A stretch of DNA of 64,000 bases, taken from contig OZ024740.1 in assembly GCA_964016885.1 (NCBI GenBank), forward strand, positions 93,248,001 through 93,312,000. The letters are read 5' to 3'. Below, piece after piece: positions 1,870 to 60,017 of the stretch; the first letter of the stretch is position 1; every line of letters starts with the position of its first letter. The notes under the pieces were generated by a model. It searched no databases and was not told the DNA's origin. It worked only from the letters and a program-made list of their open reading frames with translations. This stretch comes from Eledone cirrhosa. Lineage: Eukaryota. Position numbers and translations under genes: made by a program.

Positions 1870-2282
1870 TTAGTCTACGACTTCTGCTATACCATTTGCG
1901 TGGTTTTGTCTTTGCTTGTTATTGTTCTCCACGATCCACATATGACGTATTATCTTCGTTGTTTCGTTCATTGCCAGAGAACGTCTCTATGCACCACCTA
2001 AGAGAACATTAGTCTACGACCTCTTTTATACCATAAACGTGGTTCTGTCTTTGCGCGTAATTGTTTTTCAGCGCTCCTATTAATGACGTATTATTCGTTT
2101 TTTCCCGTTCTTTGCCAGCGAACGTTTCCACGAACCAAAGTATCGTCTTCTTGTCTTCCTCCGCTTGCAACGTTTTTTGAAATATGCAGTTCTGCGTTTA
2201 CAGATTGACTTTGTTAGTTTCAGAAGATCCCGTTAAGGGTGAAAGCAGCGATTCTTTGCTTAAACTTTAATCTGTTATTTTA
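1870..2282 (+). repeat. 3' pseudo-LTR of the PLE with a diverged internal duplication; another copy at ~39767-40030
   Basis: 1870-1995 resembles 2010-2140; ~2027-2280 matches ~39767-40022; ends at (TA)n. Confidence 0.8.
2200..2275 (+). ncRNA. Type I hammerhead-like motif, core CAGAAGA
   Basis: AGTTT-CAGAAGA-T-CCC gttaa GGG-T-GAAA-GCAG..TTGC-T-T-AAACT; distal stem I ACAGATTGA/TTAATCTGT beyond a bulge. Confidence 0.7.
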
Positions 2283-2307
2283 ATAAATATATATATATAT
2301 ATATATA

Positions 2308-4420
2308 ACTTTGTCAATTTTGATTGGTTTCTGCCAGTATTGGCCCAGGGCATGTCTAACTTAATAGCACAACCTCGCGAAGTCTTTGGACACCAGCAGT
2401 TGGGCACCATGGCCCACAAATGTAGGGTGTAGGAGGTTTATCCGGAATTCCTTGAAGGAATCTGTCCAAAGACTTCTTGAACTTTCTGGGCTCTGTTTCT
2501 GTATTAATGTGTTTTGGTGTAATGTTAAAGAGAGCGGTCCAATTGAGGAGAAATAATTGTGCGGTATTGTTTGTTGAGATGCGAGTGAGATTTGTGTAGT
2601 GGGCGGATAGCACGAGGTTCTAGCCTTGCGAGAACTTTAAAGGTGATGGCAACATCATTTTGGCAATGGTAATGAAATATTTTTCACATCATGCAGATAA
2701 GGTAGGCTCACGGTTACGCTGGAGAGAATAAAGATTCAGCTTTTCTAAACGACTCCAATAGTCATGGCCTGTCATGTGAGGTTTGAGGTGCTTCGACTTT
2801 CATAAAACTTTGTTACGTGTGGGGAGACCACACTGGCCAACAGTATTCAAAGTGGGGTCGGGCAAAAGTGGACAAGAGAAGGATAACAGTATGGATATCT
2901 CTCGACATGTTGCGTGTCATGTCTACTTTGCTGCTTATATGTGTGGCTCAGCTTATGTTGTTGTCCACAAGTACTCCCAAGACTGATGTTGCTGGATGCT
3001 ATGAGAGTTACACCCGAAGGAAGAGAGGAGTATGACAGCTTCAGGCATTCTCTTTACCAAAGTGGATTAACTCGAATTTATCCTCATTCAGCAGCATATT
3101 TTTCATTTCTGCCCATTGGTTAAGAGCAAGTAGGTCCTAATGAAGTCAAGTCTGGCCACCCACCTAATTGATGACCTTCTGCAGCTTGGAATAATCTTCA
3201 AACATTCTTATGTTGCTGTACTTGATGATGTCAATAATGTCATTAATGTAGATGATGAAATGAAGAGGGTCCTGCAGAGTGCCTTGCGGGATGCCACTGC
3301 TGACTTTGGCTGAACATGCTGTTACTCCTTCGACTATAACATGTTGGGCTCTGTCTGTCAGGAAACACTTGATCATATGTAGCAACTTTCCAGAGGCACC
3401 AATGTTGGATAGCTTTTTGAATATAGCCTTATGATCAACCCTGTGAATTGCTTTGTTGAAATGATGGTAGATGACATCAGTGTTGGAGCCACCCAACAAA
3501 CCCACCTCCCAGCTCTCAATATATCATCAAAGTGATGCACGACGTGCGTTAGGCAGTCCCTTCCATTACGGAACACATGTTGCTTGGAGTTCAGCAGCCT
3601 GTTGTTTCGAGAATCTTATTCTTGATCTCTCCACTCACTCAAATACCTTGATGATATGAGAGGTAAGTGAGATCGGACTGTAACACACTGCAAGAAAGCT
3701 TTCAGGAATTTAGCCAGCTTTCTGTAAGTTCCTCCACTGATTAGCAAGAGGCGATGCAAGTTGTTGTCGACAGACCATCAGGACATAAGCAGGGAACCTA
3801 TCGGTGTCTACTGCATGATTGTGTTTAATTTCGTTTATTGCCGTTAAGATATCAGGGGCGCCGAACGTTATGTCCGATAGAGGGTGTTGGGGATTAACAT
3901 CACTGACAACAGCCACGATTGGCCATATCAGTATTCCTGAAAACAGTAGTATTGTTTCTGCATTATCTCTGCCATGGCATTGGCATGAACTTGGAGTGTG
4001 CCATGTTCATCAATTTGAGGGCCAGCAGCAGAGACAGAGACCTTGTCGCTTTTTCTCAAATGTAAAGAACACTTTGGGGTTGCGCTTGATTTTCTCAATG
4101 GCCAATTTCTCCTCAGCTGTGATTTAGTTATTCATGATGGTCTTCGTGCAATTTTGGAGGTTATATTGCTTTGATTTAAGCAGTGCGATAGACATCAAAT
4201 GTGTGTATTACTGTTGGCAATATTTTAGATCTTTTTATTTTTCTGATAATAGATTTTTCTATTTTGGAGGTTGCTGCACTTAGTTTTCTTCACTGGTGTT
4301 GGTGGGGTGTGTTATGCACATATATTTGTGACATGTTGGTAAAAATGAGTGTGTGTGTAAAGGACCAGTCAACATGTGATAGCTCGTTCATGATTGCATC
4401 CCACGTGGGGCATGATAGAA
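2308..4420 (-). mobile_element. Degenerate CR1-group LINE (RT region and 3' end)
   Basis: KVSSGIPQGTLQDPLHFIIYINDI..IRMFEDYSKL and FKKSLDRFLQGIPDKP; 3' end shared with the 50740-52118 copy. Confidence 0.8.
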
Positions 4421-4458
4421 ATCCATGTTATCAAATATATATATATATATATATATAT

Positions 4459-4640
4459 ATAGGAACCAGTAAGACCCCGACAGCTGAGCTCAAGCCGTTT
4501 CGACGGCTAATTCGCCGTCGAAACGGCTTGAGCTCAGCTGTCGGGGTCTTACTGGTTCCTATTACCCACTCTACTACCTCAAGTATTGAGTACTTTGGTG
4601 CGTTATGGTCCACCTGGTTCCTTACCACATTTCCTTCGTT
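4459..4640 (+). mobile_element. Short fold-back element in (TA)n, with the 3' half of an HHR-like motif
   Basis: Palindrome 4459-4562 (about 49 bp arms, 6 nt spacer); (TA)n on both sides; related copies at 58416-58620 and 60822-60965. Confidence 0.75.
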
Positions 4641-58415: not shown

Positions 58416-58620
58416 AACGAAGGAGGTGTGGTAACGAAGCAGTTTGTGGCCTTGATTTGCTTAACTAATGAATATTAACGGAGCAGATGGACAATAACGC
58501 ACCATACTACTCAATACATATGGTAGTAGAATGGGTAATAGGGAAATGTTTAACCCCGACGGCAGAGCTCAAGCTGTTTCGAAACGTCTTGAGCTCTGTC
58601 GTTTGGGCTAAACTTTTTCT
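58416..58620 (-). mobile_element. Short fold-back element, family of 4459-4640
   Basis: Reverse-complement similarity to 4520-4640; palindrome centred on TTTCGAAA at ~58580; (TA)n flanks. Confidence 0.7.
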
Positions 58621-58786
58621 TATATATATATGTATATATATATATATATATATATATATATATATATATATATATATATATATATATATATATATATATA
58701 TATATATATATAGAGAGAGAGAGAGAGAGAGAGAGAGAGAGAGAGAGAGAGAGAATGAGTGGCAGAGAGAAACTCACAGATATTTG

Positions 58787-59765
58787 CGAGTAACCTTTGA
58801 AGTGTAGTGACCGCTGGATAGCTACCATTACTCATACATCTCGCCTCCTCAAACCACCTCTTCTATGTCTTTGATATGAATACCCCTCCGCCTCCATCGT
58901 ATTTTTTCAGGGTTATAAGGGTCTTAGCTCTGTTTCTTGACGGCTGTATCACGTGATTGATTCTCCCTTCACCTTTTCGAGATTCTATCTCGCGCATTAC
59001 ACACGTTTTTTTGAAATCCTTAATGAGGTATCCCCTTGATAAGTCGGCAGAACCTCACAAAACTCTATATCTCTATGATCTAGTGTTTTTGCATAATATT
59101 CACGAAATTACGTAGTCGGGGACTATAGAAGCAGCTAGGTATGATATATCTTATTACTAATTATATCTAATGTTTCTACTCTCTTCATAATGTACTATAT
59201 AGGTCTGATACTGAATCAGTCTAATCCATTCGGATTGTTTTGTCCCAGCTATTCATAGAGCAACATCGGTTGAGGTTGGCACCACTAACGCAGGGATATA
59301 TGTGGATATATTCATGTATATGTATATGTCCGCATGTATCTGTGTGTTTCTCTCTATATATTGTTTATAACTCCATTTGGTCGAGTAACCTTTGAAGTGT
59401 AGTGACTGCTGGATAGCCACCATTACTCATACTTCTCGCCTCCTCAAACCACCTCTTCTCCGGCTTTGATATGAATACTCCCTCCGCCTCCGTGGTATTC
59501 TTTTCAGGGTTATAAGGGCCTTAGCTCTGTTTCTTGACGGCTGTATCACGTGATTGACTCTCCCTCCGCCTTTTCAAGATTCTATCTCGCGCATTACAGA
59601 CGGGTTTGAAATCCTTAATGAGGTATCCCCTTGATAAGTAGGCAGAACCTCACAAAAACTCTATATCTCTATGATCTAGTGTTTTTGCATAATATGCCAC
59701 GAAACTACGTAGTCGGGGACCATAGAAGCAGCTAGGTATGATATATCTTATTACTAATTATATAT
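58787..59765 (+). repeat. ORF-less tandem repeat, ~595 bp x 1.6, with HHRs at 59031-59122 and 59626-59719 (retrozyme-like)
   Basis: Units start at 58787 and 59382; TCCCC-TTGATAA-GTnGGCA...TGCCAC-GAAA-CTACGTAG-TC-GGGGA. Confidence 0.88.
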
Positions 59766-59894
59766 TTATATATATAAATAAATATATGTATATATATATA
59801 TATATATATATATATATATATATATATATATATATATATATATATATATGAATAATAACAGGTATACACCATAAAAAAGTTGATTTATTCCGAG

Positions 59895-60017
59895 TGCTTA
59901 CAAATGTTTCAACAATAGTTATACAGCCTAGTTATGCTATGTGCAAATTGGTAATTATTTTTAATTATTTGCAGTAACTGAATTTTCAAATGCTGCTTCT
60001 ACCGTTTCCGCAGAGCA
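59895..60017 (-). ncRNA. Type I HHR-like motif, core CUGCGGA, ~96 nt stem II, within TA-flanked element ~59850-60240
   Basis: TGCT-CTGCGGA-AACGGTAG...CTATTGTT-GAAA-CATTTG-TA-AGCA. Confidence 0.65.

Follow-up and report, generated by a model that had tools for sequence, protein, structure and literature searches.

The 64,000 nucleotides analyzed here (the window; Eledone cirrhosa, assembly GCA_964016885.1, contig OZ024740.1, positions 93,248,001 to 93,312,000 of the forward strand) come from a 3.0-Gb genome and are 38% GC and rich in (TA)n, with fragments of long interspersed nuclear elements and of Penelope-like elements (PLEs). An original prediction had marked 13 hammerhead ribozyme cores in about nine repeat families of this window. 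All 13 core heptamers are present in the sequence, and the families number nine if D1 and D2 count as one. Six of them (A, B, C1, C3, F, and G; seven sites) are the 3′ ends of PLEs, with B, F, and G belonging to the Hydra clade, C1 and C3 being Neptune-like, and A assigned to no clade. The other three (C2, D, and E; six sites) have no open reading frame (ORF): two consist of tandem retrozyme-like units, and one is a hammerhead-only mini-element. Taken together, the motifs are probably type I hammerhead folds located at PLE 3′ ends and in three ORF-less families likely copied by PLE enzymes.

The positions first given mixed core starts with the low ends of motifs. Expressed as core starts on their own strand, the sites are 2221+, 39963+, 15856+, 39696−, 43133−, 44500+, 59036+, 59631+, 45267+, 55607+, 56265+, 58005−, and 60013−; further motifs missing from the list have cores at 14644−, 44208−, 16329− (decayed), 60622−, and 42163+. 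The type I topology proposed for the listed sites can be parsed in 10 of the 13 window copies, those at 39963, 59036, and 56265 being decayed and failing. Stem I has at least 2 bp in eight of the nine families and 1 bp throughout C3, and measures just 1–2 bp in the copies at 15856, 39696, 43133, 45267, and 58005. The core nucleotides (with C3-G8 or U3-A8) are intact in A, C2, C3, D, E2, and G and changed in B (U4A), F (U4C), and C1 (A13C).

A relaxed descriptor, composed post hoc with the sites already known, finds 14 matches in the window at a score of at least 9, compared with a mean of 3.0 (maximum 9) in 100 block shuffles, and 8 at a score of at least 11, compared with 1.1 (maximum 5). Our independent test set was 821,591 bases flanking 260 genomic copies, from which the nine query families had been taken out. 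At a score of at least 11, these flanks contain 110 CUGANGA matches versus none when reversed and 0, 0, and 0 when shuffled. UUGANAA gives 12 matches versus 0 reversed and 3, 3, and 4 shuffled, and CCGANGA gives 9 versus 0. The flank matches with unchanged cores form 27 clusters, in 14 of which stem III is a perfect Watson-Crick palindrome. Because of the 110-versus-0 result in independent flanks and the excess over shuffles in the window, we conclude that the hammerhead folds are genuine and that this genome is densely populated with them. A relaxed search of the kind proposed with the original prediction, over the window and these flanks, finds folds that are not equally frequent in shuffled sequence. 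It is hardly credible that the motifs are chance folds in AT-rich repeats: although the descriptor was tuned post hoc, about three matches at a score of at least 9 are expected per window, and C3 fails on stem I, this explanation is largely refuted by the flanks and also conflicts with the constant position of the motifs behind PLE ORFs and with compensatory changes in their stems.

Such compensatory changes, found by homology, affect stem I between D1 and D2 (U-A/C-G, with 74 of 75 copies paired), a C-G/U-A pair between E1 and E2, and stems II and III in flank families. Across 12 representatives, 8 of 10 pairs change on both sides (0 of 500 shuffles); the stems were required by the scan, and the covariation of stems I and III and of the 3-8 pair is partly by construction. 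The covariation suggested as a check therefore appears over this set, but not significantly in D alone. Position N7 varies while the other core positions stay constant (E2 has 12 A, 9 U, and 1 C among canonical cores), and G5, G8 (or U3-A8), A9, G12, A14, A15.1-U16.1, and H17 are kept over more than 25 unrelated families.

The expectation that strict searches would miss these motifs is borne out. An Rfam search of the window and of eight loci (E ≤ 10) yields microsatellite-driven miRNA matches but no hammerhead family, and the published minimal descriptor (PMC4209133) recovers none of 10 family-typical copies and has no match in the window. With long loops permitted, E1 and G are recovered, and with core changes permitted, B, C1, and C2; for A, C3, D1, and F, a short stem I or bulges have to be accepted as well. 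Long loop II and longer helix III cause as many misses as core changes do. Two of the predicted core variants need correction. CUGCGGA at 60013 is a private mutation due to decay, family G reading CUGAGGA in 21 of 26 other copies, and CUGAGGA at 43133 is present but is an N7 variant of the family A core, CUGACGA in 28 of 33 copies.

Features of the window discussed in the text. "Unlisted" marks motifs absent from the original prediction.
Feature	Position	Strand	Description
B, PLE ORF	419–1159	+	C-terminal part (linker, GIY-YIG), Hydra clade
B, hammerhead	2216–2266	+	CAGAAGA (U4A), U10.1.U11.1, 5-bp stem I plus distal helix, hairpin stem III
C1, hammerhead, sense arm	14612–14647	−	U3-A8 core, GCAA (A13C), palindromic CCGG; unlisted
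C1, GIY-YIG ORF	15706–15792	−	Neptune-like, last 29 codons
C1, hammerhead, inverted arm (15793–16054)	15855–15886	+	Stem I broken to 1 bp
F, hammerhead	16214–16335	−	Decayed, ~600 nt past Hydra-clade ORF; unlisted
F, PLE ORF	16880–19200 (ends approximate)	−	Hydra clade, broken: RWK, DKT, YRDD, CxCX5C, GIY-YIG
C2, hammerhead-only mini-element	39520–39738	−	Between (TA)n runs; motif 39665–39698, U3-A8 core
B, stub	39767–40118	+	5′-truncated; core at 39963, stem II broken
Hammerhead-like motif	42161–42194	+	CAGUUGA, past GIY-YIG of PLE at 40723–41930; unlisted
A, hammerhead	43097–43135	−	Minimal-type: canonical core, inserted U9.1, 2-bp stem I
A, PLE ORF	43434–43844	−	GIY-YIG end, 300 nt upstream of hammerhead
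D1, left arm	43893–44299	−	Hammerhead 44126–44213 (unlisted); ends at long site in (TA)n
D1, right arm	44296–44656	+	Hammerhead 44495–44581: U3-A8, 43-nt loop II, palindromic stem III; ends at short site
D1, predicted pseudoknot	44488–44493 with 44515–44520	+	
C3, motif	45266–45297	+	Neptune-like PLE 3′ end: U3-A8, U.U at stem II base
E, tandem array	54962–56622	+	659-bp unit, ~2.5 units
E, hammerheads	55602–55689 and from 56260 (decayed)	+	Canonical core, A10.1.C11.1, 49-nt loop II
F, two-armed stub	57368–58229		
F, hammerhead	57890–58007	−	CCGAUGA (U4C), ~75-nt loop II, stem I severed by inversion junction
D2, tandem dimer	58782–59763	+	595-bp unit; hammerheads from 59031 (decayed) and 59626–59719
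G, two-armed stub	59848–60240		Hydra-clade 3′ end
G, hammerhead	59895–60017	−	80-nt loop II, private A6C
Hammerhead, tenth family	60571–60626	−	Canonical CUGAUGA, abundant family, UAUAUA palindrome; unlisted

In families A, B, C1, C3, F, and G, a broken or truncated ORF encoding a reverse transcriptase (RT) with a GIY-YIG endonuclease at the C terminus lies upstream on the same strand. For each family, the best copies (at most 30) were fetched, which are hence young and alike. A sense PLE endonuclease at a constant upstream distance was found in 17 of 30 loci for A (ORF end ~300 nt upstream), 9 of 30 for B (~1 kb), 6 of 30 for F, 7 of 30 for G (Hydra-type), and 9 of 30 each for C1 and C3 (Neptune-like), and in none of 25 C2, 25 D, and 30 E loci. 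Since four GIY-YIG fragments and two Hydra RT fragments matched no Pfam family, the PLE assignments rest on motifs and tblastn. Hydra marks are DKT, CxCX5C, and RWR in B, RWK, DKT, and CxCX5C in F, and CxCX5C plus similarity in G; the Neptune label of C1 and C3 rests on a Cx4CxxC linker.

The link to PLEs that had been suggested is therefore sound, six families lying at a constant distance behind PLE endonuclease ORFs and D and E having PLE-type ends. The account of how the sites relate to ORFs has to be revised. Four sites had been placed behind sense GIY-YIG ORFs; in the window, only 2221 (~1.06 kb past its ORF) and 43133 lie behind their own. Site 15856+ is in an inverted arm, and the sense hammerhead of that element is the unlisted 14644−. 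The remaining elements had been called ORF-less, which is right for C2, D, and E but wrong for all other families, where most copies lack an ORF merely through truncation; 5′ truncation, inverted arms, and an optional 3′ tail are all observed. Most sites are thus 5′-truncated stubs of ordinary autonomous PLE families, and not parts of a non-autonomous system as had been inferred.

The core changes are family traits. Family B reads CAGAAGA in 34 of 37 copies, and its exact matches genome-wide number 20,334 with A4 versus 84 with U4. A canonical-core ancestral subfamily of B was considered and rejected: an older subfamily (2,036 matches) has A4 in 97 of the first 100, and the 84 canonical copies fit point mutation. 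CCGAUGA is found in 95 of the first 100 of 203 family F matches, and C1 combines U3-A8 with GCAA (A13C) in 37 of 37 copies. U4A, U4C, A13C, U3-A8, and a loop II of 43–80 nt are hence fixed variants, joined by a probable pseudoknot. U4C cores also occur in at least two further families (L095, L124, L254, and L325), all with an F-like CAAUUG stem III palindrome. The motif at 42161–42194 shares its double core change (U4A and A6U) with two other copies, L049 and L292 (~91% identity among the three), and its family has perhaps lost cleavage.

Other observations concern the PLE tails. The two ends of family F lie ~390 nt apart, versus a 30–40-nt tail described for PLEs; the distance is 165 in D, ~105 in E, and ~95 in A. 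An interspersed repeat of ~200 bp, at times doubled, recurs inside family F tails (19574–20025, 46218–46418, 57652–57862, and 16341–16434), and a near-perfect 160-bp inverted repeat (45009–45172) just upstream of the C3 motif is likely the inversion junction of that stub. The family of the motif at 60571–60626 has 52 blast matches in fetched loci. Another Hydra-clade family forms fold-back stubs (4444–4587, 58513–58582, and 60807–60964 in the window; L114, L255, and L013) with hammerhead cores CUGAGAA, UUGAAAA, and UUGACAA; 16 of its 32 arms begin 32–45 nt before the cut site, within loop II, and it has a weak 29-nt likeness to D. Outside these families, positions 34082–38775 (− strand) hold a non-long-terminal-repeat retrotransposon in which RT, zf-RVT, and a nuclease-like region at the C terminus are recognizable. 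Its 3′ end is duplicated in tandem over 1 kb, with (TAA)n at the boundaries.

As for the ORF-less families, C2 is a solo element of 150–230 bp that starts ~41 nt ahead of the core in 25 of 25 loci. No same-strand repeats indicative of tandem units occur in these loci, and there is no common upstream sequence apart from adjoining B stubs in four; the query favored copies with (TA)n upstream. D and E consist of tandem units of 591–595 and 657–661 bp, respectively, each with a hammerhead. Family D has 5,926 exact matches in the genome, and its arrays reach 12 or more units. Units differ by 0–5 substitutions inside an array and by 6–20 across arrays, a pattern that fits one template per array and by which a circle and local duplication are not separable. 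Measured from the core, arms end at +157 or +322 (D1), +165 or +319–333 (D2), +357 or +463 (E1), and +362 or +463–470 (E2), almost always in (TA)n. Of 50 distinct loci with head-to-head insertions and both ends visible, the window's own D1 insertion among them, 42 pair a short with a long end and none uses the same site twice; excluded from this count were 7 loci cut at an edge, 6 with another geometry, and repeated views of a locus. The paired fixed ends fit the two RT start sites and double-strand cutting of the anole element PAc (PMC11167929), and they lend genomic support to the proposed mobilization of retrozymes by PLEs. Could D and E instead be satellites, derived from PLE tails and grown by local duplication, with PLE enzymes copying read-through transcripts and no circles involved? 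A higher-order substitution pattern among the 11 units of one array (L330) favors this route, which Li et al. discuss (bioRxiv 10.64898/2026.07.22.740005). We consider it quite improbable in view of thousands of dispersed copies, mostly of 1–4 units with the same two end sites, and of multi-unit arms that also end at those two sites.

In the folds of D, E, F, and G, loop II measures 43–80 nt. In D and E, the first nucleotides of this loop are complementary to a 6-nt strand directly 5′ of stem I, and a like build is found in flank families likewise arranged in tandem (558, 482, and 657 bp). Over all 26 long-loop families, the pseudoknot score beats permuted partners (P = 0.0006) and is at least 7 in only 5 of the 26. 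The terminal pair of the D pseudoknot is U-G, U-A, or C-G in 75 of 75 copies, and folding as circles gives z scores of −5.6 for D1 and −3.8 for D2. Additional long-loop hammerheads (L092:27-1250, L243, L213, L077, L052, L327, and L079) have an 8–10-nt palindromic stem III and compensatory stem II changes. A Naiad origin of the long-loop motifs was rejected, as the linked ORFs all end in GIY-YIG, which is N-terminal in Naiads.

Predicted from sequence, the hammerhead motifs would cut their own RNA, and we propose the following scheme. The PLE protein would cut both strands of (TA)n, and reverse transcription would begin at two fixed points shortly downstream of the hammerhead. Because RT would start there, nearly every stub would hold the motif, which would explain its density. 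In D and E, multimeric transcripts may be cut by hammerheads that pair via their palindromic stem III and are braced by the pseudoknot, after which ligation would close the monomers into circles, templates around which a PLE RT would then run. Among the autonomous families, cleavage probably proceeds slowly, relies on help from protein, or can be dispensed with, and such a weak need for it could have allowed U4A, U4C, A13C, and a collapsed stem I to become fixed. Much more tentative is a wider reading, possible but not the one that we would favor, in which either the uridine turn tolerates A4 (perhaps helped by protein) or PLEs keep the fold without the cut, in a Hydra-clade PLE of more than 20,000 copies. 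It would add a clan of 480–660-nt retrozymes with an unreported build (long loop II, 5′ pseudoknot, palindromic dimer helix), integrated from RNA circles by a PLE RT at two fixed sites.

A number of results weigh against the proposed scheme. None of 206 unselected arms starts within 2 nt of the cut site, which would mean that templates are uncleaved or re-ligated, and the genomic copies give no hint of the ribozyme processing that had been inferred; a loose excess of arm starts between −8 and +22 (24 of 91 arms in B, F, G, and the L255 family) is post hoc and was not counted. Family E was found in no RNA run. PAc hammerhead mutants insert normally, cleavage not being needed (PMC11167929), and of nine predicted Xenopus retrozymes, eight showed no cleavage (bioRxiv 10.64898/2026.07.22.740005). 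For none of 11 copies does ViennaRNA predict the hammerhead fold as the main monomer state, and in C1, C3, and E1 the core is buried by competing pairings; such scarcity of active monomer folds would be expected for a palindromic stem III, and equally for dead motifs. The pseudoknots of E1, E2, H3–H5, and J are weak, pseudoknot covariation among eight D sequences is not significant (43–119 of 500 shuffles), and E units are not unusually structured (z ~ −1.2). Homology of D or E to the pseudo-long terminal repeats (pLTRs) of PLEs does not extend beyond 29 nt (E = 8e-4), and no intact PLE ORF was found in eight fetched regions. Within families, mismatches of 1.1% in the core versus 2.3% in flanks speak neither for nor against the scheme, the copies having been chosen as best matches.

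The lack of arms at the cut site and the insertion of PAc without hammerhead cleavage would also be seen if the folds were kept as structural signals, for example for binding of the PLE protein, with variant-core families no longer cleaving and the elements moving as uncleaved linear multimers. The same is suggested by the fixation of U4A in both B subfamilies and of A13C in C1, by C3 lacking a stem I, by the double core change at 42163 common to three copies, and by the Naiads, which thrive without canonical hammerheads. We regard this as unlikely, though a serious contender, because the key core nucleotides are kept over more than 25 unrelated families, a palindromic stem III is expected for dimer cleavage, and natural hammerheads with U4C, U3-A8, or U.U either cleave or sustain infection by viroids (PMC3088659). 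Hammerhead folds at PLE 3′ ends and in families likely copied by PLE enzymes thus remain our preferred reading.

These findings matter in several ways. Published cleavage by PLE hammerheads is weak or protein-assisted and is not needed for insertion in vitro, and the families fixed for U4A, U4C, and A13C are natural experiments on selection for cleavage. The paired ends of D and E name candidate RT start sites for the proposed mobilization of retrozymes by PLEs. Moreover, censuses that limit loop II to 10 nt or rely on Rfam overlook whole families with thousands of copies.

Hammerheads were described in the pLTRs of metazoan PLEs by Cervera and de la Pena (2014; PMC4209133). The motifs of the window resemble these in lying at PLE ends as type I folds with a palindromic helix III, an inserted base 9.1, U3-A8, and a 2-bp helix I, and the elements in being mostly solo truncated copies of many families per genome. 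In contrast, the descriptor of that study accepts at most 10 nt in loop 2, requires GAAANNUH, and recovers none of the families here, and U4A, A13C, a 43–80-nt loop II, and the pseudoknot do not figure in the parts of it covered here. Our Hydra-clade families share with that clade as described by Craig et al. (2021; PMC8557442), which includes an octopus family, the RWK, DKT, and CxCX5C motifs, a C-terminal GIY-YIG, (TA)n targets, and a hammerhead at the 3′ end, in which the base of stem II often has U.U. The Hydra hammerheads described there have a CUGANGA core and a loop 2 of at most 10 nt, a pattern to which B (U4A), F (U4C, 75 nt), and G (80 nt) do not conform; loops of ~30–35 nt are given, in the parts covered, only for spike-moss PLE-X1. 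Judged by eye, the "half-core" at two octopus Naiad 3′ ends of the same study consists of a cleavage block, a GAAA block, a CUGAUGA block, and a 5-bp stem I, and so resembles a non-circularly permuted (type-SGC) hammerhead. A search for this block order (S-G-C) gave 0 matches in the window or fetched loci, and three short motifs were not found in the covered part of the supplement, where line breaks could hide a match.

Like metazoan retrozymes (Cervera and de la Pena 2020, PMC7229834; bioRxiv 10.64898/2026.07.22.740005), D and E are ORF-less tandem units of low GC with one type I hammerhead each, for which mobilization by PLEs has been proposed. Their unit size (591–659 bp) is above the 170–400 nt of PMC7229834 and within the 51–972 bp of Li et al. 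(2026). They differ from the retrozymes in the literature covered in the long loop II of both, the U3-A8 core of D, and two fixed PLE-type ends. In pseudoknot-braced hammerheads (Perreault et al. 2011; PMC3088659), a helix likewise runs from beyond stem I to loop II, and U3-A8, U4C, A6C, and U10.1.U11.1 are natural variants; unlike those, D and E are animal tandem repeats in which the partner strand lies at the start of a 43–50-nt loop. A 6-bp pseudoknot is also found in the PK hammerhead (Zhan et al. 2024; PMC11300833), where it replaces helix II, whereas D and E retain a normal helix II. In the literature covered, we found no description of families with U4A or A13C, of retrozymes with a pseudoknot or with paired fixed ends, or of animal PLEs whose loop II spans 40–100 nt. 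PLE hammerheads, U3-A8, U4C, and PLE-derived retrozymes are thus already published, and the new parts are the fixed core variants, the build that joins a long loop with the probable pseudoknot, and the paired ends.

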